Origin: Parcubacteria bacterium GBS-2
GTDB lineage: Bacteria; Patescibacteriota; Minisyncoccia; Minisyncoccales; GBS-2
DNA length: 64,000 nucleotides
Direction: 5' to 3'
NCBI GenBank assembly: GCA_001443025.1
Contig: LEKP01000003.1
Location: 22,652-86,651, forward strand
Below are positions 1,038 to 54,949 of the stretch, in pieces. Both the position numbers and the translations under genes were made by a program. Numbering within the stretch: the first letter of the stretch is position 1; the number at the start of each line of letters is the position of its first letter. The notes below the pieces were generated by a model that was not told the DNA's origin, ran no database searches, and saw only the letters and a program-made list of their open reading frames with translations.

Positions 1038-1053
1038 TCACTCCATTATAACA

Positions 1054-1082
1054 GAAAATAAAAAAATGCCCAAAAAAGGGCA
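1054..1082 (-). terminator. Rho-independent terminator after 5S rRNA
   Basis: Minus-strand TGCCC-TTTTTT-GGGCA hairpin followed by a T-run (TTTTTTTATTTT), immediately 3' of 5S. Confidence 0.5.
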
Positions 1083-4587: not shown

Positions 4588-5274
4588 TTATCTTTCAGAA
4601 ATTTTTTTTCTTATTTCTTCAATCAATTTTGCAGCTGCATCCTTTCCACCTAATCCAAAAGCTAATCCCAGTGCCAAAGAAATAGTACCGATCAACCCAA
4701 AAATCAAAGCATTAACAATCTGAGGAGTTACTCCAAGTTGAAGCAAAATCGCCAATGTAGCAAAAACATAAACTGCTCCTTTCACTAAAGTTCCAAAAAA
4801 TCCTGCATAGCCAACCTCTATTTTCTTTACGGACGCCTTAACTACTTTCTCTAAAATATCGGCAATAATAATCGCAACTACAAAAATTACCACTGCAACT
4901 ATTAAATTCGGTAGCCATAAAACTATTCCTCTTAAAAATTCGGCAAATTGAGTCAATCCTAAAATTTCAACTGCTGCTAACAGAAAAACGATCACTAAAA
5001 TCCATCTGAAAATTTCTCCAATGAATTCTGAGACAGCGACTTTAATTTCTGCTTTTTCTAATGCTTCTTTCCATCCAGCCCTTTCAAAGAATCTATCTAG
5101 CTTTATTTTCCTTAAAACCCCACCAATCATTTTCCCAATTACCAGGGCAACAAACCAACCAACGATAAATACAATCGTTGCTCCGATTAACTTTGGCAAA
5201 AAGAACAGAAAGCCCTTCCAAAGATTCTGCAAGGCTTCCAGAGTAATTAAGGACCAATTTTGAATCATTGTCAT
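4588..5274 (-). CDS. Small multi-pass membrane protein, mechanosensitive-channel-like (conserved TM-helix repeats)
   Basis: 228 aa with four or more hydrophobic helices and repeated charged linkers. Resembles the 'conserved TM helix' MscS-related family from memory. No search was run. Confidence 0.45.
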   Translation of the reverse strand: MTMIQNWSLITLEALQNLWKGFLFFLPKLIGATIVFIVGWFVALVIGKMIGGVLRKIKLDRFFERAGWKEALEKAEIKVAVSEFIGEIFRWILVIVFLLAAVEILGLTQFAEFLRGIVLWLPNLIVAVVIFVVAIIIADILEKVVKASVKKIEVGYAGFFGTLVKGAVYVFATLAILLQLGVTPQIVNALIFGLIGTISLALGLAFGLGGKDAAAKLIEEIRKKISER

Positions 5275-5309
5275 AAAATAAAAGGTTAATTTCGACCTTT
5301 AAAAATCTT

Positions 5310-5381
5310 TGGACCCGGTGGGATTCGAACCCACGACCTCCGCATTGCAAATGCGGCGTTCTACCACTAAACTACAGGCCC
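5310..5381 (-). tRNA. tRNA-Ala (anticodon UGC)
   Basis: Cloverleaf folds by hand: acceptor GGGCCTG/CGGGTCC with a G3:U70 pair, anticodon loop TTTGCAA, T-loop TTCGAAT, discriminator A. No encoded CCA. Confidence 0.95.
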
Positions 5382-5541
5382 AGTCGCTCGCCTCTCCAGC
5401 GCTATCGCACTGGCGCCCCGCCGTGAAATTTTTCACGCGGGGCTTCGGCTCGCTCTCCATAGGGGAAACCGAGGTTCCTCCCTCTCCATGGCGCTCAGAC
5501 ATCTCTTTAAAGGAGATTGTCTTCGCTGTCATCCCCTCTTT
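5382..5541 (-). ncRNA. GC-rich structured spacer between rpmG and tRNA-Ala (modules X+Y of a repeated tRNA-leader element)
   Basis: Module Y (5385-5443) matches 30799-30857 at 41 of the first 43 nt. Module X (5459-5484) is identical over 26 nt to 5873-5898. It forms three hairpins and ends 3-4 nt before the tRNA 5' end. Confidence 0.5.
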
Positions 5542-5703
5542 CTATCTTATTTCCTTGTGTATTGTATGTTTTTTACAAAATTTGCAGTATTTTTTCAACT
5601 CCAGTTTTTTCTTTCCACCTTTCTTTGATTTTCTTTTGTAATAATTTATTCTTTTGCACTCTGAACACTGAAGTTTTGTCAATTGTGATTTTTTCTTTGG
5701 CAT
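5542..5703 (-). CDS. rpmG: 50S ribosomal protein L33
   Basis: Absent from the track (53 aa). Hand translation: MPKKKSQLTKLQCSECKRINYYKRKSKKGGKKKLELKKYCKFCKKHTIHKEIR*. It has the two CxxC zinc-ribbon pairs and the LELKKYC...HT.HKE signature of L33. Confidence 0.85.
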   Translation of the reverse strand: MPKKKSQLTKLQCSECKRINYYKRKSKKGGKKKLELKKYCKFCKKHTIHKEIR

Positions 5704-5704
5704 G

Positions 5705-5776
5705 AGCCAGAGGTGGGAATTGAACCCACGACCTTTCCCTTACCAAGGGAACGTTCTACCACTGAACTACTCTGGC
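5705..5776 (-). tRNA. tRNA-Thr (anticodon GGU)
   Basis: Acceptor GCCAGAG/CTCTGGC, anticodon stem-loop TTCCC-TTGGTAA-GGGAA, T-loop TTCAATT, discriminator U. No encoded CCA. Confidence 0.95.
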
Positions 5777-5777
5777 G

Positions 5778-5862
5778 TGGGTGGGGCAGGATTTGCACCT
5801 GCGGAGGCAAAACTGCCGTCTGGTTTACAGCCAGACCCCTTTGTCTACTCGGGAACCCACCC
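5778..5862 (-). tRNA. tRNA-Tyr (anticodon GUA), class II with long variable arm
   Basis: Acceptor GGGTGGG/CCCACCC, anticodon stem-loop TCTGG-CTGTAAA-CCAGA, variable arm CGGCAGTTTTGCCTC. A single nucleotide separates it from tRNA-Thr. Confidence 0.95.
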
Positions 5863-5927
5863 TTTTCCCTCAATAGGGGAAACCGAGGTTCCTCCCTCAA
5901 TTGCGCTCCACTCACCCCTCCGCTTTG
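5863..5927 (-). ncRNA. GC-rich spacer between tRNA-Ile and tRNA-Tyr (module X copy)
   Basis: Contains the 26-nt block ATAGGGGAAACCGAGGTTCCTCCCTC (plus-strand 5873-5898), identical to 5459-5484. Folds as GGGAGGAAC-CTCG-GTTTCCCC. Confidence 0.4.
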
Positions 5928-5999
5928 TGGGCATGGTAGGAATCGAACCTACGACCTCACCCTTATCAGGGGTGCGTTCTACCATTGAACTACATGCCC
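5928..5999 (-). tRNA. tRNA-Ile (anticodon GAU)
   Basis: Acceptor GGGCATG/CATGCCC, anticodon stem-loop CACCC-CTGATAA-GGGTG, T-loop TTCGATT, discriminator A. Confidence 0.95.
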
Positions 6000-6010
6000 A
6001 CCACTTCTTT

Positions 6011-6039
6011 AATATAACTTTTTATCAAGTTTTTTGCAA
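6011..6039 (-). promoter_or_regulatory. Promoter of the tRNA-Ile/Tyr/Thr-rpmG-tRNA-Ala unit
   Basis: Minus strand TTGCAA (6034-6039), 17 nt, TATATT (6011-6016), 11 nt upstream of the tRNA-Ile 5' end. Confidence 0.5.
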
Positions 6040-6071
6040 ATTGATGATTCATTCTGATTTTTATTAAATCT

Positions 6072-6266
6072 TCAAAAATTCCTCTTTAGTCCAAAAACTT
6101 TTATTTTTTGATTCTCAAATTTCTTCAAAAATTCAAAACTTCCATCACTTGAACCATCGTCAACAAAAATAACTTCGTCTCCAAAATCAATTTCTTTTAA
6201 AACCTTAGCAATTTTGCCTACCCTTTCTCTTTCATTGAAAACTGATAAAATTGTAGAAACTCTCAT
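6072..6266 (-). pseudogene. Family-2 glycosyltransferase N-terminal fragment (64 aa)
   Basis: MRVSTILSVFNERERV...VIFVDDGSSDGS is the N-terminal Rossmann/DxD part of a GT2 enzyme. The ORF stops after 64 aa, whereas GT2 enzymes are usually over 200 aa. Confidence 0.55.
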
Positions 6267-6808
6267 TTTTCCAAAACAAAAATTTTCTTTTTTATCAAAA
6301 AATCTTTCTCTGAAATTAACTTTAAGCCAAGTTTTTTAAAAATTTCTTCCCACTCTTTTTTAGTGTGAAAATTAAATTTTGGAGATTTTCCAAAAAACAA
6401 ATTCCAACTTATCCAGTGAAAAAAACAATAAAGTTTTCCTAAAATTCCTTCTGGTAAATCTTCAAAAATAATTATTCTCTTTCCAACTCTTTTTGCCTCT
6501 TGCAAAATTGAAATTGGATCTTCTGTGTGGTGCAAAACAAAAGAAATTATTACTAAACCGAAAAAATTTTCAGGAAAAGGTATTTTTTTGCCATCGTAAA
6601 TTTTGAATGGAATATTGCAAACTCTTTTATCAACAATGTCTATTCCAATAACTTCTTTTTTCAATCTCTCTCTTATTTTTTCTCCTAAAATTCCAGAGCC
6701 ACAACCTAAATCCAAAATTTTCTCACCTTCCAAAAACTTCTCAATTTCATTTACCATCTTTTCTGCTGCAATCTCATAGAATCGCTGAAAAATCTTCCAA
6801 AAGCTCAT
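6263..6808 (-). CDS. Class I SAM-dependent methyltransferase
   Basis: Motif I ILDLGCGSGILG and the post-I acidic GIDI; 181 aa. Confidence 0.75.
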   Translation of the reverse strand: MSFWKIFQRFYEIAAEKMVNEIEKFLEGEKILDLGCGSGILGEKIRERLKKEVIGIDIVDKRVCNIPFKIYDGKKIPFPENFFGLVIISFVLHHTEDPISILQEAKRVGKRIIIFEDLPEGILGKLYCFFHWISWNLFFGKSPKFNFHTKKEWEEIFKKLGLKLISEKDFLIKKKIFVLEK

Positions 6809-7278
6809 TTTTTCTTTGAAAAGCTTCCAAAGACCAAATCTGGTATTAACTTTTTAAGATCTTTTGTAAAAATTTTTATCGAAAAATTCCAATCTCCACC
6901 GTTTAAAATGATTTCTTTTTCTCTCTTTATCGAATTGTCAACAAAAGTTTGGCATTTCCATAAATTCCCAAAAGGAGGAATCGCTCCCAGTTTTACTCCT
7001 TTTATTCTCTTTTTAATTAATCTTTCAGATGCCAACTCAATTTTTTCTTTATCTATTTTCTTTTTAATTTTTTTAAGATCAAGCTTTTTACTTGCTGGAA
7101 TTAAAACAAAAACCAAAGAATTATTCGCTTTTAAAATCAAGGTCTTTCCAACAATTTTTTCAGGAACTTTTAAAGTTTGAGATTTATCGAAAGCAGTAAA
7201 AACGGTTTTGTGTTTGATTATCTCGTACTTTACTTTTGCTTTCTCTAAAAAATTAATGATTCTTTTTGATACAGCCAT
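6805..7278 (-). CDS. YbaK/ProX-type aminoacyl-tRNA deacylase-like protein
   Basis: From internal Met (MAVSKRIINFLEKAKVKYEIIKHKTVFTAFD...GAIPPFG...ILNGG) the sequence resembles YbaK/EbsC-fold proteins. The track ORF's extra 64 N-terminal codons overlap the 16S trailer and processing stem, so I discarded them. Confidence 0.6.
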   Translation of the reverse strand: MAVSKRIINFLEKAKVKYEIIKHKTVFTAFDKSQTLKVPEKIVGKTLILKANNSLVFVLIPASKKLDLKKIKKKIDKEKIELASERLIKKRIKGVKLGAIPPFGNLWKCQTFVDNSIKREKEIILNGGDWNFSIKIFTKDLKKLIPDLVFGSFSKKK

Positions 7279-7365: not shown

Positions 7366-7391
7366 GGAAAGTTCCTTTGAGTTGTCCCGAC
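7366..7391 (-). other. 16S 3' processing-stem strand
   Basis: RNA-sense GUCGGGACAACUCAAAGGAACUUUCC is complementary (25 Watson-Crick pairs + 1 G:U) to the leader segment encoded at 9391-9416. Confidence 0.7.
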
Positions 7392-7858
7392 CCAGTCGAG
7401 ATTTAGGGCTCCTCGACCAACACCCTAGGATCAAGAAGGGAATTCCATCTCCTTGATCCCAGTCGACCAAAAATTTAATGAGTGATCCACGGGCACCTTC
7501 CGGTACCCGTACCTTGTTACGACTTCGCCCCTCTCACCGGTCCCAGGCTAGTCCAGCTTCCGCTGGGTTTCGCCTGTTACCGGCTCGCTTGGCGTGACGG
7601 GCGGTGAGTACAGGGCTCGGGAACGTATTCACCGGAACATGGCTGATTTCCGGTTACTAGCGATTCCTGCTTCACGGGGTCGAGTTGCAGACCCCGATCC
7701 GAACTGGGGCGGCTTTTAAGGGATTAGCTCCGCCTTACGGCTTGGCAACCCTTTGTAGCCGCCATTGTTCCACGTGTGCAGCCCAGGGCATAAGGGCCAT
7801 GCTGGCCTGGCGTCGTCCCCACCTTCCTCCGGCTCAAACCGGCAGTCCCGCATGACAT

Positions 7859-8172
7859 CCCCCGCACCACTTTTAGCTTCAAGCTAATAAGCAATTTTTA
7901 ATTCTTTTCAGAAGTTCTTGTTTTGCCCTGCCATGGTATTTTAATCTTCTTTCTCTTAAGGTAGCATCTTTTTCACTTGAATATGCTTCAACATAAATGA
8001 GCCTCCATTTTCCCTTTTCCTTAGTAAATCTCGATCTCCCAATTCTATGTTCTTCCAGTCTTCGTTTTAAATCTTTCGTTTTTCCAATATAAAGTTCTTT
8101 CGTTATTTCATTTTGAAGAAGGTATACATACCACCACATTATTAAATCTTAAAACCAAAAGTGGTGCGGGGG
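7859..8172 (-). mobile_element. Stem-flanked insertion in 16S (helix-39 region) carrying a GIY-YIG ORF
   Basis: A perfect 16-bp inverted repeat, CCCCCGCACCACTTTT (7859-7874) / AAAAGTGGTGCGGGGG (8157-8172), brackets an AT-rich 282-bp core. The core is almost entirely ORF 7879-8139. Flanking sequence resumes conserved 16S (…GGGACTGCCGG…). Confidence 0.65.
7879..8139 (-). CDS. GIY-YIG nuclease-domain protein (YhbQ/UPF0213-like), encoded inside the 16S insertion
   Basis: WYVYLLQNEITKELYIGKTKDLKRRLEEHR...RLIYVEAYSSEKDATLRERRLK matches the GIY...YIG...R...E catalytic layout. Same orientation as the rRNA. Confidence 0.8.
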   Translation of the reverse strand: MWWYVYLLQNEITKELYIGKTKDLKRRLEEHRIGRSRFTKEKGKWRLIYVEAYSSEKDATLRERRLKYHGRAKQELLKRIKNCLLA

Positions 8173-8944
8173 CAAACATGCGGCGAGGGTTGCGCAGGTT
8201 TTGGCATCTAAGCTTGCGCCTCACGGTACCTGCTGACGACGGCCATGTAGCACCTGTGCCAGTGTCCTTGTGGAACCCCACGGTTTCCCGCAGGTTTCAC
8301 TGGCATGTCAAGCCCTGGTAAGGTTCCACGGTTGTCGTCGGATTGAGCCACATGGACCACCGCTTGTGCGAGCCCCCGTCTATTCCTTTGAGTTTCACCC
8401 TTGCGAGCGTACTTCCCAGGCGGGGCACTTAACGCGTAAGCTTCGCCACCCACAGGGTCGACACTGCAGGCAGCTAGTGCCCATCGTTTAGGGCGTGGAC
8501 TACAGGGGTATCTAATCCCCTTTGCTCCCCACGCTTTCGTCCCTCAGCGTCAGGGTCGGCCCAGCCGGCTGCCTTCGCTTTCGGCGTTCCTGCCGATATC
8601 AACGGATTTCACCCCTACACCGGCAGTTCCACCGGCCTCTACCGCCCTCTAGTCAAACAGTATCTCAGGCATTCCTCAGGTTGAGCCCGAGGTCTTTAAC
8701 CTGAGACTTGCTTGACCGCCTACGGTACCCTTTACGCCCAGTAAATCCGGCTAACGCTTGTGGCTCACGTATTACCGCTGCTGCTGGCACGTGATTGGCA
8801 GCCACTTATTCCTGCGGTACTCTCACCCCCCAGATATACATCTGGGGGGTTGCTCCCGCAGAAAAGGGGTTTACAACCCGAAGGCCTTCTTCCCCCACGC
8901 GGCGTCGCTGGGTCAGGGTTTCCCCCATTGCCCAATATTCTCGG

Positions 8945-8988
<44 letters not shown>

Positions 8989-9172
8989 GCGGCGGCCACC
9001 CTCTCAGGCCACCTACCCGTCATAGGCTTGGTGGGCCATTACCCCACCAACTACCTGATAGGCCGCGGGCCCTTCCCAGAGCGGTTGGGGTTTTACCCCT
9101 TCCCTTTACTGTTTGGGAATTTCACCCAAACAGACTATCGGGGATTAGCCTGGTTTCCCAGATTGTCCCCGT

Positions 9173-9235
9173 CTCTCCTCCGTCGCCCTTACGGGCTTTG
9201 GAGGACCCACCGTAGCTCGAGAGAGCGAAGGTGGG
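9173..9235 (-). other. ~63-nt GC-rich insertion near the 16S 5' domain
   Basis: Lies between GTAACACGTGGGTAACCTACCCCA and ACGGGGACAATCTGGGAAACC, where E. coli has a direct continuation (from memory). Forms hairpins CCCACC...GGTGGG and TCCTCC...GGAGGA. Confidence 0.5.
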
Positions 9236-9390: not shown

Positions 9391-9416
9391 GTCGGGACAA
9401 CTCAAAGAAACTTTCC
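9391..9416 (-). other. 16S 5' processing-stem strand
   Basis: RNA-sense GGAAAGUUUCUUUGAGUUGUCCCGAC pairs with the trailer segment encoded at 7366-7391. Confidence 0.7.
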
Positions 9417-9564: not shown

Positions 9565-9870
9565 TTAGTCCTTTTTGCTTTCTTCTCCTTTCTTTTCCTC
9601 TTTTTTCTTTTTATGAACTGGAATTTTCTTTCCTTCTATCACTTTTTCAGAAACTAAAAGATTGTAAACACTCTCTGATGGTTTTGCTCCAACTGATAAC
9701 CAATATTCTATTCTATCTTTTCTTAAAACTTTTTCTTTTGTTAACGGATTCCAAAAGCCCACCTCTTCAACGAACCTTCCCCCTCTTGGAGGATTTCTTT
9801 TGTCAGTAACTACAATTTTAAAAGCTGGCTGATTTTTTTTACCTACTCTGAAAAATCTTATTCTCAACAT
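9565..9870 (-). CDS. rpsP: 30S ribosomal protein S16
   Basis: MLRIRFFRVGKKNQPAFKIVVTDKRNPPRGGRFVEEVGFWNP is the canonical bS16 N-terminus. Has a Lys/Glu-rich tail. Confidence 0.9.
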   Translation of the reverse strand: MLRIRFFRVGKKNQPAFKIVVTDKRNPPRGGRFVEEVGFWNPLTKEKVLRKDRIEYWLSVGAKPSESVYNLLVSEKVIEGKKIPVHKKKKEEKKGEESKKD

Positions 9871-9874
9871 AATT

Positions 9875-10567
9875 TTACCATCCTTTAATTTTTAAAGCGT
9901 TTTTTGCTGCCTCTTCTTCTGCCTCTTGTTTTGAGGTACCTTCACCTTTTGCTACTAATTCATCCCCTAAAAAAACTCCAACAATAAAATGCTTTGCATG
10001 ATCTGGTCCCCATTCTTCTAAAACTTTGTAAGTTGGAGTAATTTTCATTCTTTCTTGAGCTTCTTCTTGAAATTTTGTCTTTGGATCTTTAAAAAGGCCT
10101 TTTTCAATAATTTCTGGAAGTTTTTTCTCTATTAAGTTTTTTTCAACAAAGTTTTTAGTAATTTCATAACCTTGGTCAAGATAAATTGCTCCAATGAGTG
10201 CTTCAAAAGTGTTTGCCAAAATGTACAGTCTTGCTTTTCCAGTTTCTTTTTCTTCTCCTTTTGATAAAAGCAAAAAATCGTTAAAACCCAATTCTTTTGC
10301 TAATTCTCCTAAAATTTTAGCATTAACTAACGCCGCCCTCCAATTAGTCAATTCTCCTTCATTTTTTTCAGGATACTTTTTGTAAAGATATTCAGTAACG
10401 ATCAATTCTAAAACGGCATCTCCCAAAAATTCAAGTCTTTCGTTGTGGGACAAAGGAAAATCTGGATGCTCGTTTAAATACGATCTGTGGCAAAATGCTT
10501 CAATCAATAAATCCCTGTTCTTAAATTCCAATTGTAATTTCTTTTCTAAAATCGCAAAATTTTTCAT
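9875..10567 (-). CDS. rnc: Ribonuclease III
   Basis: Signature [16 protein letters not shown] plus a C-terminal dsRBD ([12 protein letters not shown]...[18 protein letters not shown]). Confidence 0.9.
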
Positions 10568-11013
10568 GTTTTTTCTTTCTCTTCTTTTTTCTCCTCGACT
10601 TCCTGGACAAGTTTATAAACCGTTCCTAAAACTCCGTTAACAAACTTTCCAGAATTTTCTCCCCCAAATCCTTTTGCCAACTCTATTGCTTCGTTTATCG
10701 CGACTTTTGGTGGAACTGCCTTTTTGTCTCCAAACAAAAGTTCATAAATTCCAATTCTCAAAACATTTCTATCGACAATCGACATTTGTTCTAGCGGCCA
10801 CTGAGGAGCAGTTTTTCTAATTATTTCATCGATTTCTTTTAAATGCTTTACCACTCCCAAAACCAACTCAAAAACAAAAGTACCGTCTAATCCTGGACCA
10901 AATTCTTTTAAATTCCTTTCAACAATTTCTTTTAAATTTGCTTTTTGATTGTAAAAATCCCACTCGTAAAGTGATTGCATCGCAATCGATCTTGATAAAT
11001 GTCTCGAAGCCAT
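10564..11013 (-). CDS. nusB: Transcription antitermination factor NusB
   Basis: [14 protein letters not shown]...[14 protein letters not shown]...[14 protein letters not shown] is a typical NusB pattern. Confidence 0.85.
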
Positions 11014-11034
11014 ATTATTTTTTAGAAGGTTCTC

Positions 11035-11301
11035 CTAAGGTTGTTGTTCTAATTTTTGCCTTTCTGCTCCTTCTTTCAATTTCATTTCTTTCTCTCTCTT
11101 TTTTCTTTCTTTTTTTTCTAATTTTGCTAACACGTCAATTACCATTTTCCCTTTATAATATCCACAAAATGGACAAACTTGATGAGGTAAAATAAAATTC
11201 CCGCACTTTTGGCATTTCACCAAGTTGGGTTGTTCCAAATAAATATGCATTCTTCTTCTTCCTACTTTGGATTTTGAATGTCTTTTCTTTGGTACTGCCA
11301 T
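11035..11301 (-). CDS. rpmF: 50S ribosomal protein L32 with Lys/Glu-rich C-terminal extension
   Basis: MAVPKKRHSKSKVGRRRMH...C..CG....PH.VCPFCGYYKG zinc ribbon. Confidence 0.85.
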   Translation of the reverse strand: MAVPKKRHSKSKVGRRRMHIYLEQPNLVKCQKCGNFILPHQVCPFCGYYKGKMVIDVLAKLEKKERKKREKEMKLKEGAERQKLEQQP

Positions 11302-24542: not shown

Positions 24543-24965
24543 TCAATCTACAATTTCAATACCCATATTCTTTGCCTGACTCTCAATAATTTTCATTGCT
24601 TTTTCAATATCTGTAGTATTCAAATCAGGAAGTTTTTCTTGTGCAATTTTCCTCAATTGTTCTCTGGTTATTTTTCCGACCTTTTTTTTGTTTGGCTCTC
24701 CAGACCCCTTTTCAATTCCAGCCGCTTTTTTCAAAAATTCTGCAGTTGGAGGTCTTTTTATTTCAATATCAAAAGTCCTGTCTTCGTAAATTGTAACTTT
24801 GACAGGTATTGTCCAGCCTGCCTTATCTTTTGTCGCCTGATTGAATTTATCACAAAATTCTTTAATGTTTATTCCATGAGGAGCTAAAGCAGGACCCACT
24901 GGTGGAGCTGGAGTCGCCTGCCCTGCTGGAATTTGAATTTTGACTATTGCTTTTATTTTTTTCAT
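24543..24965 (-). CDS. rplK: 50S ribosomal protein L11
   Basis: [27 protein letters not shown] is the canonical uL11 N-terminus. Confidence 0.95.
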
Positions 24966-25507
24966 AATTTTTTGATCTGTAAATAATCCAGTTCGACTGG
25001 AGTATCTCTACCAAATAAGTTAATCATTACCTTTACCCTTCCTCTTTCTTCGTCAATTTCTGCAATTTTCCCATCAAGATCCTTAAAAGGACCATCTATA
25101 ACTTTAACCAGATCTCCAACTTTAAATTCAATTTTATACTGAGGCTCTTTGACCTCAATTCTTTTCAATAATTCCTTCATTTCCTCATCTGAAACTGGAA
25201 TTGGTGTCGTTCCTGAACCAATGAATCCGGTGACGTTTGGTGTGTTTCTTACCACATACCAAGAATCATCGGTGACTATCATTTCAACAAAAACATATCC
25301 AGGATAAATTTTTTCTTCGACTATTTCTCTTTTTCCTCCTTTAACTTTAATCTTTTTCTCTTTTGGTACCAAAACATTAAAAATCTTATCTTCCATTCCG
25401 AAAGCTTCAATCCTTTGTTTCAGATTTCTAGCTACTGCCTCTTCGTACCCCGAATAAGTATGGATAACGTACCATCTTCTTTCTTGTGGTAGTTTTTGTT
25501 TTGGCAT
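24962..25507 (-). CDS. nusG: Transcription termination/antitermination factor NusG
   Basis: [15 protein letters not shown] (NGN domain) and the KOW motif [18 protein letters not shown]. Confidence 0.95.
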
Positions 25508-32801: not shown

Positions 32802-32824
32802 GAAAACGGAGGTGAACTTTAAAA

Positions 32825-33955
32825 ATGACAGATGAAAAAGAGGTGAAGGTGTTTAAGTTATGGAGGGAACTCTTGGAACAAGGACCCACAAATGAAGATT
32901 TGCGCTATATCATTAAGTGGGTAGAACCTTTAAGGAAAGAGGCTGGGCAGAAACTCTTGGAACAAGGGCCAACAAAGGAAGATTTGTTCTATATCATTAC
33001 GTGGGTAGAACCTTTAAGGAAAGAGGCTTGGGAGAAACTCTTGGAACAGGGGCCCACAAAGGAAGATTTGCGCTATATCATTAAGTGGGTAAAACCTTTA
33101 AGGAAAGAGGCTTGGGAGAAACTTTTGGAACAAGGACCCACAAATGAAGATTTGCGCTATATCATTAAGTGGGTAGAACCTTTAAGGAAAGAGGCTGGGC
33201 AGAAACTCTTGGAACAAGGGCCAACAAAGGAAGATTTGTTCTATATCATTACGTGGGTAGAACCTTTAAGGAAAGAGGCTTGGGAGAAACTTTTGGAACA
33301 AGGACCCACAAATGAAGATTTGCGCTATATCATTAAGTGGGTAGAACCTTTAAGGAAAGAGGCTGGGCAGAAACTCTTGGAACAAGGGCCAACAAAGGAA
33401 GATTTGTTCTATATCATTAAGTGGGTAAAACCTTTAAGGAAAGAGGCTTGGCAGAAACTCTTGGAACAGGGGCCCACAAAGGAAGATTTGTTCTATATCA
33501 TTAAGTGGGTAGAACCTTTAAGGAAAGAGGCTTGGGAGAAACTTTTGGAACAAGGACCCACAAATGAAGATTTGCGCTATATCATTAAGTGGGTAGAACC
33601 TTTAAGGAAAGAGGCTTGGCAGAAACTCTTGGAACAAGGGCCCACAAATGAAGATTTGCGCTATATCATTGAGTGGGTAGAACCTTTAAGGAAAGAGGCT
33701 TGGCAGAAACTCTTGGAACAAGGGCCCACAAATGAAGATTTGCGCTATATCATTGAGTGGGTAGAACCTTTAAGGAAAGAGGCTGGGCAGAAACTCTTGG
33801 AACAAGGGCCAACAAAGGAAGATTTGTTCTATATCATTGAGTGGGTAGAACCTTTAAGGAAAGAGGCTTGGGAGAAACTCTTGGAACAGGGGCCCACAAA
33901 GGAAGATTTGCGCTATATCATTAAGTGGGTAAAAACCTTTAAAGAGAGAGGCTAA
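32825..33955 (+). CDS. Tandem-repeat protein: 13 x 28-aa helical-type units (LLEQGPT.EDL.YII.WV.PLRKEA..K)
   Basis: A 376-aa ORF with no signal peptide. After 15 N-terminal residues the whole protein is 28-aa units. Visibly GC-richer than its neighbours. Has its own promoter and terminator. Confidence 0.8.
   Translation: MTDEKEVKVFKLWRELLEQGPTNEDLRYIIKWVEPLRKEAGQKLLEQGPTKEDLFYIITWVEPLRKEAWEKLLEQGPTKEDLRYIIKWVKPLRKEAWEKLLEQGPTNEDLRYIIKWVEPLRKEAGQKLLEQGPTKEDLFYIITWVEPLRKEAWEKLLEQGPTNEDLRYIIKWVEPLRKEAGQKLLEQGPTKEDLFYIIKWVKPLRKEAWQKLLEQGPTKEDLFYIIKWVEPLRKEAWEKLLEQGPTNEDLRYIIKWVEPLRKEAWQKLLEQGPTNEDLRYIIEWVEPLRKEAWQKLLEQGPTNEDLRYIIEWVEPLRKEAGQKLLEQGPTKEDLFYIIEWVEPLRKEAWEKLLEQGPTKEDLRYIIKWVKTFKERG
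32870..33955 (+). repeat. 84-bp tandem repeat array, 12 full units + 1 truncated
   Basis: Units are ~90-100% identical at the DNA level. A 168-bp higher-order block (units 1-2) recurs as units 4-5. Confidence 0.95.
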
Positions 33956-36720: not shown

Positions 36721-37824
36721 TCATTTTCTTATTTTGAATCTTTTTTCTAATTTTTTGAGTTCTTCAACAATCCCAGTATACTCTAATTCTTCCATCGGAA
36801 GCATTGCTGCTCCATAAAACCCTTGTTTTCTTATTTCGATTGCTTTTTTAGCAGCTTCTCTTCTCACTTCATCCCAAAATGGGTGATCGAAACAATCAAC
36901 AGGTTCTGTTAATTTTCCGTTTTTCATTGAAAATGCTAAACAAGATACTACCGGAGGTCCATCAAAGAAAGAAATTGTTGAATTTTTCTTAACCGGCATC
37001 AAGGGTCCAATATGGGAACCTCTCATAAAGCCCGCGACATAATATCCCAAAGCATAGGGAGCTAAAATTTCTCCAGTGGCTGGAAAATCTTTTTGGGTTC
37101 TAACTAGCATTACAGGATCGTCTTTTCCAACATATTTTCCTGCAATGTTTCTTAATCTGGTAGTTGAAGCTGCAACTACTTGTTCGCCAGTTGCTCTAGA
37201 AAATATTGATTCCACAACAAACCTTCCTGGTTCTCTTAACAAAATCGCAATATCATAAATTTCTTCTGGGCTCACCAATTCAATCACCTTGTCTGCCTCA
37301 GTATAAGAAACATCCATTATCACAAATTTGAATCCTTTCTTTAGAGTTGGTGATAAAATTAGGCCAGCACAATACATTGGATCACAAAACGCCAAATACA
37401 ATGGTAAATTAAAAGCACCAGGTTCAGTTTTGTCTGCCATGAAAAATAAAAATGGTTCTGCTTCCCTTTCTTCAATTTCCATTTCAGCAACTTGAGGCCC
37501 CATTCCTTTTACATTTCCAGAAAAGGCTGTTGCTAAAAGATCTTGGCCTGCACCATAAAGTCCTTGAGATTTTGCTACCTCTGTCGCTTTTAATAAAGCA
37601 TCATAGCAGAGTTTATGAATTTTTCTGCTTCCTATTCCTTTTTTATGAGTCGTTAAAATCGAAATGTCATCGCCTGTATGGCCAATGTAATAATCAATAA
37701 TCAATCCTTTTCCCTTCTTTTTTATTTCCTCCTCCACTGCTTCTAACATTTTCTTTGAAGGTTTTATGTGTCCTCCGATCGACCCAACATCCGCTTTGAT
37801 TACTGAAATTGTAATTTTTGCCAT
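36721..37824 (-). CDS. fbp: Bifunctional fructose-1,6-bisphosphate aldolase/phosphatase (class V FBPase)
   Basis: N-terminus KITISVIKADVGSIGGH and overall length (367 aa) match the archaeal-type FBP aldolase/phosphatase family (from memory). Confidence 0.85.
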   Translation of the reverse strand: MAKITISVIKADVGSIGGHIKPSKKMLEAVEEEIKKKGKGLIIDYYIGHTGDDISILTTHKKGIGSRKIHKLCYDALLKATEVAKSQGLYGAGQDLLATAFSGNVKGMGPQVAEMEIEEREAEPFLFFMADKTEPGAFNLPLYLAFCDPMYCAGLILSPTLKKGFKFVIMDVSYTEADKVIELVSPEEIYDIAILLREPGRFVVESIFSRATGEQVVAASTTRLRNIAGKYVGKDDPVMLVRTQKDFPATGEILAPYALGYYVAGFMRGSHIGPLMPVKKNSTISFFDGPPVVSCLAFSMKNGKLTEPVDCFDHPFWDEVRREAAKKAIEIRKQGFYGAAMLPMEELEYTGIVEELKKLEKRFKIRK

Positions 37825-52916: not shown

Positions 52917-54194
52917 TCAGTGAGTAGCACAAGAAATGCAAGGATCATAAACTCTAATTAACGATCTAATTTTTCTAATTTGCTCTTCTTTTTTTAGTCT
53001 CAAAATCTTTGGTAAGAAATCTTTAAGGTCCTCTTCTATGTTGTGCAAAAATTGAGCAGTAGGAGTAATAATGTTGCAGTTTAAAATTCTTCCGTCTTTG
53101 TCAATTTCGTAATAGTGGAAAAGAGTTCCTCTGGGAGCTTCTAAAGCGCTCAGTCCGCTTGAAGGATGAAATTTGATTTCTGGTTTTTCTTTTTTGAGTG
53201 GCATTTTCAAAATTTCTTTTAATAATTCTTGACAAACTTCCAAAAAGTACAAAACCTCAATCGCTTGAGAAAAAAGATTATAAAAAATATTTTTAAAATA
53301 CTCTTTTTCTTTGATTTTTCTCTCTTTCAAAAATTCCTCAAACTTTTCCCTAGAATTTTTTGTTAAAAATCTTCCATTATTTTTAATTCTGGCGATTGCT
53401 CCTACCATGTAAGCCTTGCCTCTAAACTTTACTTTCTTTACTGGCGGTGACTTTAAATCCTCTTCAATTTGAACTGAGTAAAAATCAGAGAAAGTAAATT
53501 TTTCTTCCCCAATTTTAACGATTTTTTCAAGATAATAAGGATAATTTTTTCCATTGAAAACTGAAGCAAAAAGAGTTTCTCTTTCAAATTCTGGGTACTC
53601 AATTTTTTTGAAAGTGTCCACTAACAAGTTTGCATCTTCAATTGCTTGAGGAATTTTTTCTAAAATCTGTTTCAATTTTTCTTTTTCTGGAATTTTTGTA
53701 AAACCTCCAACGATCGGTGTTATTGGATGGACTGCTCTTCCTCCAACAATTCTCGTTATTTCTAAAGCAAGATCCCTTACTCTTAATGCTGCCTTTGATT
53801 CTTTTTTAAATTTCTTTAAAAGTTCCAAATCGTTTTCAATATTAAAAAAATCTGGCAAAGAAAGGAAAAACAAATGCAAAGTATGGGAATGGATAATGTT
53901 TGCAGCCAAAAGCAATTTTCTCAAAAGAATAATCTCTTCTGAGATTTTAACATTTAAAGCGCTTTCTATCGCAGTGCAAGCCCCTAAAATATGAGGTACA
54001 GGGCAAATTCCACAAATTCTCGAAACAACGATCGGAACTTCAAAATATCTTCTTCCAATCAAAATTCCTTCAATCTGTCTCAATCCCAAAAGAGTTTGAA
54101 ACTTCAATTCCTCAATTTCCCCAGTTTTTGTTACTTTTGCCCAAAACCCAGCTTCCCCCTCAATTTTATGAATATGGGGAATGGTGATTTTCAT
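52917..54194 (-). CDS. [NiFe] hydrogenase large subunit (cytoplasmic group-3-like)
   Basis: N-terminal metal motif RICGICPVPH and C-terminal DPCISCATH. Confidence 0.85.
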   Translation of the reverse strand: MKITIPHIHKIEGEAGFWAKVTKTGEIEELKFQTLLGLRQIEGILIGRRYFEVPIVVSRICGICPVPHILGACTAIESALNVKISEEIILLRKLLLAANIIHSHTLHLFFLSLPDFFNIENDLELLKKFKKESKAALRVRDLALEITRIVGGRAVHPITPIVGGFTKIPEKEKLKQILEKIPQAIEDANLLVDTFKKIEYPEFERETLFASVFNGKNYPYYLEKIVKIGEEKFTFSDFYSVQIEEDLKSPPVKKVKFRGKAYMVGAIARIKNNGRFLTKNSREKFEEFLKERKIKEKEYFKNIFYNLFSQAIEVLYFLEVCQELLKEILKMPLKKEKPEIKFHPSSGLSALEAPRGTLFHYYEIDKDGRILNCNIITPTAQFLHNIEEDLKDFLPKILRLKKEEQIRKIRSLIRVYDPCISCATH

Positions 54195-54949
54195 AATTTT
54201 AAAAATTTTTCTATGTCATCTTTTATTCCAAAAATTTCCAAATTGTCTTCGATTTCTTTTGGGCTTTTGAATTTTTTTAATGTTTCTAAAAATCCTTTTG
54301 GGTTTATGTTTTTTAAAATCCCCCTGCAGCCATAACAAAGTTGAAAATTTTTTGGACAAATTGCTTGGCACCCTGCCAAAGTTATCGGTCCCAAACAGGG
54401 TTCTCTTTTTCTTAAAAAACAGGTTTCTTTCCCCTGATGCTCGCATTCTGAACAAACTGGCTTTTGTGGAAATTCTGGAATTTTCCCTTTTATCAATTCC
54501 TTTGCATATTTTAGAAATTCCTCTCCATTGATGGGACAACCTGGAATGTAAAAATCTACTTTAACAAAGTTGTCAATTTCTTTAATCTCTGGATTTTCAA
54601 CGTTTAATTTTTTGTAAATGTACCTTATTGTCCTTTCTCTTCCTTGATAATTTTTCATTTCTGGAATTCCACCTAAAGCTGCACAATTTCCCATTGCCAC
54701 TAAAATTTTTGATTCTTTTCTGATTTTTTTTAATAAATTTATCTCCTCTTTCTTTATTGGCAATCCCTCAACAAATGAAACATCAATTTCTACTTTCCCT
54801 TTTGGAAATGGTATTTCTTCAATTAATGAAAAATCGATTAAATCAATTTCTCTTAAAAAATCAAAAAATTTTTCTCCCAAATCCAAAAGCGCAAATTGGC
54901 AACCTTCGCAAGAAGTTAAAGAAAAAAGGGCAACTTTTGGTTTTCTCAT
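54191..54949 (-). CDS. [NiFe] hydrogenase small subunit (no Tat signal)
   Basis: KVALFSLTSCEGCQ, GNCAALGG, GCP and distal Cys clusters. Translationally coupled to the large subunit. Confidence 0.8.
   Translation of the reverse strand: MRKPKVALFSLTSCEGCQFALLDLGEKFFDFLREIDLIDFSLIEEIPFPKGKVEIDVSFVEGLPIKKEEINLLKKIRKESKILVAMGNCAALGGIPEMKNYQGRERTIRYIYKKLNVENPEIKEIDNFVKVDFYIPGCPINGEEFLKYAKELIKGKIPEFPQKPVCSECEHQGKETCFLRKREPCLGPITLAGCQAICPKNFQLCYGCRGILKNINPKGFLETLKKFKSPKEIEDNLEIFGIKDDIEKFLKL

Follow-up and report, generated by a model that had tools for sequence, protein, structure and literature searches.

The 16S rRNA gene of the window, by which we mean the whole 64,000-nt stretch of DNA analyzed here, has no anti-Shine-Dalgarno (anti-SD) sequence, and the Shine-Dalgarno (SD) signal is likewise absent from its 51 gene starts. 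According to textbooks, bacteria select their start sites by pairing of SD with anti-SD, and the CCUCC core of the anti-SD is among the most conserved motifs of rRNA. The reading that we favor, with a probability of roughly 0.8, is that this lineage lost the anti-SD core long ago, dropped initiation by SD-anti-SD pairing and selects its start codons in SD-independent ways. The 3′ end of the gene consists of the following elements.

9381-7475, minus strand: 16S rRNA gene (Rfam RF00177, 1310 bits, model positions 1-1533)
7511-7488, minus strand: helix 45 (UACGGGUACCGGAAGGUGCCCGUG), intact in the cmscan alignment
7477..7487, minus strand: GAUCAC at 7487-7482 and then UCAUU at 7481-7477, which the SSU alignment places at the position of the anti-SD core (CCUCC)
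7469..7481, minus strand: AU-rich linker after helix 45, which differs among relatives in sequence and in length (~12-25 nt; columns 31-47 of alignment A1)

The gene spans 1907 nt versus 1533 nt in the model because it carries insertions. Its alignment to the bacterial SSU model holds through helix 45 and GGAUCAC, after which UCAUUAA faces CUCCUUU of the model; in the Rfam SSU alignment the 3′ end reads ...ugGAUcACCUCCUUu in the model and ...GUGGAUCACUCAUUAA in the window. The tail following helix 45 is thus GGAUCAC-UCAUUAAAUUUUUGG, where the bacterial model has GGAUCACCUCCUUU at the same place. A regular-expression search found no CCTCC on the minus strand from 7480 to 7300. The alignment and the search bear out the sequence-only reading, which had described a 16S tail without the CCUCC core at 7470-7490 (correct, when read on the minus strand) and a trailer without CCUCC up to the processing stem. 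The stem that it proposed is real, but the trailer in front of it measures ~88 nt and not ~110 nt.

We compared this tail with those of related organisms, which were gathered by homology to the YbaK-like protein encoded next to the 16S gene, with retrieval of the respective contigs, and by a metagenome scan of 16S ends for GGATCAC followed by a sequence other than CCUCC. The scan yielded six contigs with the unusual helix 45 of the window, and four of the six carry the tail TCATTAAATTTTTGG. Since this tail is identical in four independent metagenome contigs (L124, L126, L129 and L130), it is not an assembly error. Altogether, the relatives represent 14 distinct lineages from independent metagenomes, with 16S identities to the window of 78-96%. 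All 10 pairs of helix 45 are kept, with compensatory changes among the relatives. In all 14, the 250 nt that follow helix 45 are free of CCTCC, which leaves no case of a CCUCC hidden in the trailer, and CCUCCU is absent from the 16S 3′ end in the window and the 14 relatives alike. The sequences that follow GGAUCA(C/U) in the relatives are AU-rich and vary in sequence and length (UUAAAUUAAAUAAU, UCAAUUUAUAAU, UCAAUUGAAUUUUAAG, UACACUUUAUUUUUG and others), and GAUCA itself has decayed in three relatives to GGACCA, AGAACA and GGAACA. By the evidence of these tails, the anti-SD loss is clade-wide and ancient in the lineage. The sequence after helix 45 would now be an unconstrained AU-rich linker. 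Most CPR are reported to have lost era, and the KH domain of Era binds GAUCACCUCC (PMC10582724); we infer that this loss may have removed the last constraint on the 16S tail, which would explain the drift of GAUCA in the relatives.

It is extremely unlikely that the gene of the window is not a functional 16S, or that its 3′ end is an artefact of misassembly, a pseudogene or a counterpart to a second rrs copy with CCUCC. A single rrs copy is visible within the 64-kb window, and metagenome assemblies sometimes collapse or mis-join rRNA operons, but the gene matches the model over its entire length (1310 bits), retains intact helices 44 and 45 and has a long processing stem with covariation. The same tail recurs in four independent JGI assemblies, related tails occur in 14 lineages with synteny conserved in most, and the mRNA side independently lacks SD. 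A second copy is also disfavored by the single rRNA operon that CPR genomes usually have.

Variant 16S ends were also seen elsewhere. The exact pattern of the window (its helix 45 plus GGATCA) had 0 matches in GTDB species genomes. The looser pattern GGAAGGTGNNNNTGGATCACD matched at least 119 loci; 16S ends made up 5 among the matches listed, the sole notable one among them being that of Candidatus Burkholderia crenata (L105) with GGATCACTTTTTTTCT. This locus (LGTG01000434.1, ~2290, minus strand) has the 16S 3′ end GGATCACTTTTTTTCTCGAG without CCUCC. Ca. Burkholderia crenata is a genome-eroded leaf-nodule symbiont, and its tail may reflect either a further anti-SD loss that occurred independently or the decay of an rrs copy. 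Four BNJV/BNJS metagenome contigs (L121, L123, L125 and L127) as well as L021 and L087 have 16S ends reading GGATCACTCTTTCTAAGGA or GGATCACTCCTTTCT, which are the canonical tail minus one or two C; homopolymer errors in assembly are as likely a cause of these C-short tails as real variation.

The non-rRNA parts of the window have ~31-36% GC, which together with insertions in 16S is typical of CPR. GyrB of the window shares 72-73% identity with proteins of Ca. Nealsonbacteria and of the Patescibacteria group, and L143 (GCA_014357975.1), a Candidatus Parcubacteria bacterium, shows 63% identity in the YbaK-like protein and 84% in 16S; these closest named homologues assign the window to an uncultured bacterium of the CPR/Parcubacteria. 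Loss of the anti-SD has been reported in a subgroup of Parcubacteria that overlaps the group lacking uL1 (Tsurumaki et al., 2022, RNA 28:1041, PMC9297842), and the motif was detected in only 48% of Parcubacteria according to passages of the same paper. The window resembles the subgroup, as described there, in its CPR/Parcubacteria affiliation, a 16S 3′ end without CCUCCU and insertions in rRNA genes. The passages of PMC9297842 give motif detection rates only and do not name the exact lineage of the window, and searches of that paper by term returned no mention of SD usage in mRNAs, promoter-to-start spacing or a conserved structured trailer. On whether CPR, Parcubacteria or Patescibacteria use SD or leaderless mRNAs, the literature search returned only brief passages of PMC9297842 and a remark on YchF in PMC12641178. 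As far as these passages go, anti-SD loss in Parcubacteria is largely known and the window is a further member of that group. What is added here to the published loss is the demonstration for the mRNAs, the spacing between promoter and ATG, and the conserved structured 16S trailer.

The genomic context of uL1 was inspected at the following loci.

24543..25507, minus strand: nusG-rplK pair (Pfam), with rplK at 24965-24543
24517-24029: dCMP deaminase (Pfam), directly after rplK in place of rplA (uL1)

The nusG-rplK pair is followed by genes for dCMP deaminase, thyX, SHMT and tmk instead of rplA-rplJ-rplL, and tblastn with E. coli L1, L10 and L12 found no homologues of uL1, uL10 and bL12 in the 64-kb window. 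Within these 64 kb, an rplK not followed by rplA appears to fit the uL1-lacking Parcubacteria. We also considered a degenerate L1 stalk in 23S rRNA as a sign of uL1 loss; the stalk (H76-78, about 1950-2070) is intact and thus uninformative.

To quantify SD usage, gene starts were called naively as the first ATG of the longest non-overlapping ORFs of ≥90 aa, and the best duplex energy between positions -22 to -2 and ACCUCCUUA was compared with that at internal ATGs as controls. The 51 starts of the window averaged -1.61 kcal/mol versus -2.98 kcal/mol at internal ATGs, which amounts to a depletion, and 41 starts of the relatives averaged -2.00 versus -2.67 kcal/mol at controls, again with no SD enrichment. 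The same script returned -5.28 versus -2.58 kcal/mol for E. coli (51% GC, p=1e-12) and -7.67 versus -2.20 kcal/mol for Staphylococcus phage K (29% GC, p=1e-23). GGAG within -20 to -4 was present at 4% of the 51 window starts and 9% of the internal-ATG controls, whereas the same pipeline found it at 31% versus 2% in E. coli and 64% versus 4% in phage K. Naive as the caller is, it nevertheless recovers the SD signal in both controls. Thus the test of SD enrichment and free energy that the sequence-only reading had proposed shows no enrichment at the 51 starts of the window, and its statement that some 20 inspected starts lack a GGAGG-type motif holds quantitatively for the larger set. Both exceptions that it named are present, namely GGAGGTG before the gene of a repeat protein and GGAG 3 nt before the ATG of mreC (1037). 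The former alone combines a good SD-like sequence with suitable spacing.

32808..32814, plus strand: GGAGGTG, ending 10 nt before the ATG at 32825

Its occurrence fits chance, because one in 51 starts matches the rate of GGAGG at internal controls (2%). With an rRNA lacking the anti-SD and mRNAs lacking SD, the suggestion that SD-dependent initiation has largely been abandoned in this organism is supported. Organisms without anti-SD have been described as also being without SD (PMC6107228).

What marks the starts instead is foremost their A-richness. A occupies position -3 at 0.71 of the starts versus 0.33 of internal ATGs (0.63 of the starts in the relatives) and positions -4 and -5 at 0.61, while G is depleted upstream of starts (0.13 vs 0.22). 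The start regions also fold less stably than controls (-5.1 vs -7.4 kcal/mol, p=2e-5), a property shared by E. coli and phage K and hence universal rather than organism-specific. TATAA and ATAAT are among the most enriched words upstream of starts.

An A-rich upstream region could mean that the anti-SD was replaced rather than lost, with the U-rich tail (UCAUUAAAUUUUUGG) pairing with A-rich sequences in an AU-type version of SD and anti-SD. In line with this, the U-tract complements AAAAT, AAAAAT and AAATT are 2-2.6 times commoner at starts than at internal ATGs (p ~1e-4), and most relatives have a U-run somewhere in the linker. However, starts have no advantage over controls in duplex energy with the native tail (-1.76 vs -2.45 kcal/mol for 13 nt, -3.27 vs -3.81 kcal/mol for 18 nt). 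Among the reverse complements of all 5- and 6-mers from GGAUCAC to hairpin 2 of the trailer, only those of the U-tract (AAAAT, AAAAA and AAATT) are enriched, but stronger enrichment is seen for A/T-rich words that lack complementarity to the tail (TATAA 8.2-fold, AAATA 5.5-fold, AATAA 5.2-fold); the signal therefore reflects general A-richness plus -10 boxes. Moreover, the linker is conserved among relatives in neither sequence nor length, and a 5-bp A:U duplex is unstable on its own by nearest-neighbor energetics. We thus rejected the new tail as an alternative anti-SD on account of the duplex energies, the explanation by A-richness and the unconserved linker, and consider such a replacement very unlikely.

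The -10 boxes point to a second feature of the starts. A -10-like hexamer begins at -20 to -12 in half of the operon-first genes (10 of 20) and in a single one of the 33 others (binomial p=6e-5); the relatives, with a weaker signal, have it at 8 of 37 starts (22%, p=0.009), E. coli at 0 of 27 and phage K at 4 of 43. Leaderless-dominated initiation calls for a -10 element at a fixed short distance from operon-first start codons (about 7 nt, counted from its 3′ end), and these counts agree with it. Operon-first starts with such a -10 cluster are found, for example, at 1037, 7278, 11301, 25507, 32690, 56964 and 60652. As the -10 box stands 12-20 nt before the ATG, the hexamer spacing in this AT-rich genome suggests that operon-first genes may be expressed from leaderless or very short-leader mRNAs. 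The mreC gene provides an example.

1045..1072, minus strand: extended -10 promoter (TGtTATAAT) abutting the mreC start, a 10/12 match with TG in the promoter scan, ending 7 nt before the ATG at 1037

This promoter predicts a leaderless mreC transcript. The GGAG noted above sits in the discriminator region between the extended -10 and the ATG, and is for this reason probably not even transcribed.

Gene packing was considered as a third feature. Same-strand neighbors overlap in 14 of 48 pairs, seven of them by 4 nt (ATGA type) compared with one 4-nt ATGA overlap in E. coli. Neighbors within 30 nt of each other number 27 of 48 in the window and 23 of 52 in E. coli, a modest excess. Since apart from the ATGA overlaps the packing is only slightly above that of E. 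coli, we rejected it as a distinctive feature; it is permissive and not diagnostic.

Under SD-independent start selection, these features would correspond to three routes. Operon-first genes would be translated from leaderless or very short-leader mRNAs by leaderless, 70S-type initiation. Starts that are A-rich at -3, -4 and -5, poor in G and weakly structured may be recognized in the manner of the Kozak-like signature of Bacteroidia. Downstream genes that are tightly packed or overlap by ATGA could be reached by termination-reinitiation coupling, so that internal cistrons would depend on A-rich unstructured junctions together with coupling.

Although the linker is variable, the region that follows it is not. 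Between the linker and the processing stem, the 14 lineages (14/14) share the same ordered set of elements, namely GUCGA, hairpin 1, GGGUGUUGG and hairpin 2.

7462..7468, minus strand: single-stranded motif GGUCGAC, in which GUCGA is invariant in 14 lineages (columns G45-A49 of alignment A1)
7426..7461, minus strand: trailer hairpin 1 (RNAalifold), 15 bp with an apical GG-AAUU-CC and a 2-nt bulge
7417..7425, minus strand: single-stranded motif GGGUGUUGG between hairpins 1 and 2, in invariant or nearly invariant columns of A1
7396..7416, minus strand: trailer hairpin 2, a 5-7 bp stem with a conserved GCCCxAAA loop, both sides being changed in 3 of 5 pairs
9391..9416, minus strand: 5′ strand of the processing stem, in the leader (leader-trailer cofold)
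7366..7393, minus strand: 3′ strand of the processing stem, in the trailer (leader-trailer cofold)
10567-9875, minus strand: RNase III gene (rnc), upstream of 16S

The carriers of this module are the window at 7396-7468 on the minus strand and L120, L124, L128, L129 and L135-L143 at the equivalent position. In hairpin 1, 97.6% of the alignment cells are paired and both sides are changed in 9 of 15 pairs; over the 20 pairs of the two hairpins together, these values are 96.8% and 12 of 20. The observed values were reached in 0 of 500 shuffles, and slid controls were only 40-60% paired. The cofold pairs leader 9416-9391 with trailer 7393-7366 in a stem of ~28 bp and has an energy of -93 kcal/mol for the whole leader and trailer including both hairpins. 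The predicted stem is likely to be the RNase III processing stem of pre-16S rRNA. With rnc located upstream of the 16S leader, the presumed nuclease for this stem is encoded beside its substrate. The genes rpmF (L32), nusB, rnc and rpsP (S16) adjoin the leader upstream on the same strand (9565-11301), and S16 is followed by the 16S gene also in L135 and L143.

The only Rfam family with a match at E≤0.01 over 7380-7700 was SSU, with none for the trailer structure, and there was no match to this structure at gathering thresholds in the 64-kb window. The two covarying hairpins with their invariant flanking motifs, placed between helix 45 and the processing stem, are possibly unreported. The distal pairs of hairpin 1 are formed by AAGGAG and CUUCUU in the window and in close relatives, resembling a helix of SD and anti-SD, and the pyrimidine arm might thus be regarded as a displaced or masked anti-SD that is held in cis and freed after processing. 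The corresponding pairs are GAAAAC:GUUUUC in L138 and GAAAAG:CUUUUU in L142, however; the pairing is kept but not the sequence, and therefore selection acts on the helix rather than on an anti-SD sequence. CUUCUU also differs from CCUCC, and the mRNAs lack a purine-rich partner motif, with G being depleted upstream of starts. We assign this possibility a negligible probability, and hairpin 1 was discarded as a mimic of SD and anti-SD in cis or as a masked anti-SD, its purine and pyrimidine sequences being unconserved and its pairing conserved.

The conserved module most likely serves as a signal for 3′ maturation of pre-16S rRNA, for example by directing endonucleolytic cleavage within the AU-rich linker. 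Less likely than the maturation signal, and unlikely in itself, is that the module (GUCGA, the hairpin with the GGAAUUCC apex, GGGUGUUGG and hairpin 2) stays on mature 16S rRNA as a lineage-specific 3′ expansion at the platform or mRNA-exit site, the usual location of the SD/anti-SD helix. One circumstantial point favors such retention: the ribonucleases of CPR are reported to be limited to RNase III, RNase J and PNPase (PMC12641178). Stable hairpins stall PNPase, so an exonuclease would have difficulty trimming the RNA from the RNase III cut back to helix 45. If true, retention would give the 30S subunit a structurally new 3′ end, in an organism whose initiation is mostly on leaderless mRNAs. 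The structured trailer is in any case a concrete target for mapping how such ribosomes finish their 3′ end.

These features were compared with known systems. Prokaryotes rich in leaderless mRNAs include Actinobacteria, Deinococcus and many archaea, as in the 'leaderless' classes of GeneMarkS-2. They share with the window a -10 element at a fixed short distance before operon-first starts and no SD there, but leaderless-rich bacteria are generally known to keep the anti-SD and to use SD for internal cistrons. Bacteroidia such as Flavobacterium johnsoniae, whose ribosomes have been studied (Baez 2019, PMC6847099; Jha 2021, PMC7797042), resemble the window in mRNAs without SD, A-rich Kozak-like starts with A at -3 and low structure. 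Unlike the window, Bacteroidia retain the canonical anti-SD, which is hidden in a pocket of bS21, bS18 and bS6 and is kept for regulation of rpsU and prfB (PMC6847099, PMC7797042). The window, in which the anti-SD sequence itself is gone, is thus like Bacteroidia on the mRNA side but not of the Bacteroidia type, and no residual regulation of the Bacteroidia style is therefore possible. Other bacteria without anti-SD include Blattabacterium, Chryseobacterium, Carsonella and some Mycoplasma (Lim 2012; Amin 2018, PMC6107228). Common to them and the window are loss of CCUCC together with SD, the lack of a variant SD/anti-SD pair and clustering by lineage. The window differs from them in belonging to another phylum and to a deep clade with 16S identity down to 78%, and its clade in the decay of GAUCA and the conserved two-hairpin trailer after the tail.

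A deep, species-rich CPR clade without any anti-SD is a natural experiment. It shows that the anti-SD is dispensable for translation in bacteria, for assembly of the 30S subunit (Era binds GAUCACCUCC) and for any regulation that depends on SD, an example being the prfB frameshift. Gene finders that score ribosome binding sites will misplace starts in such genomes, and 5′ regions will have to be redesigned when CPR genes are expressed in hosts that depend on SD, or vice versa.

The rRNA operon of the window is broken up by protein-coding genes at 4588-7278, and the 16S gene itself contains an ORF.

4356-1239, minus strand: 23S rRNA gene (Rfam)
1210-1095, minus strand: 5S rRNA gene (Rfam)
7278-6805: YbaK-like deacylase, a protein with a tRNA-editing domain, just downstream of 16S and before tRNA-Ile
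6808-6263: SAM methyltransferase, between 16S and tRNA-Ile
5274-4588: protein matching Pfam MS_channel_1st_1 (mechanosensitive ion channel TM helix), between tRNA-Ala and 23S
8139-7879, minus strand: GIY-YIG endonuclease ORF of 86 aa (Pfam E=2e-15), in the ~300-nt insertion of 16S

The spacer between 16S and 23S holds four tRNAs (Ile, Tyr, Thr and Ala) besides the protein-coding genes, tRNA-Tyr and tRNA-Thr thus also being inside it. The order of 16S, the ybaK-like gene and the methyltransferase gene is kept in most relatives. The ~300-nt AT-rich insertion in the 16S gene (~7861-8173, minus strand) is closed by a 15-bp stem (CCCCGCACCACUUUU / AAAAGUGGUGCGGGG) and lies, as we presume from our own comparison with the E. 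coli sequence, in the region of helix 37. A second insertion of ~94 nt is located in the 5′ domain at about 9135-9230. The 16S genes of two relatives, L138 and L142, have LAGLIDADG ORFs in place of GIY-YIG. Elsewhere in the window, Pfam matches include a fructose-1,6-bisphosphatase of type V (FBPase_3) and both subunits, large and small, of a NiFe hydrogenase (36721-37824 and 52917-54949), as well as GAPDH, acetyl-CoA synthetase and lactate-utilization (LUD/CCG) proteins.
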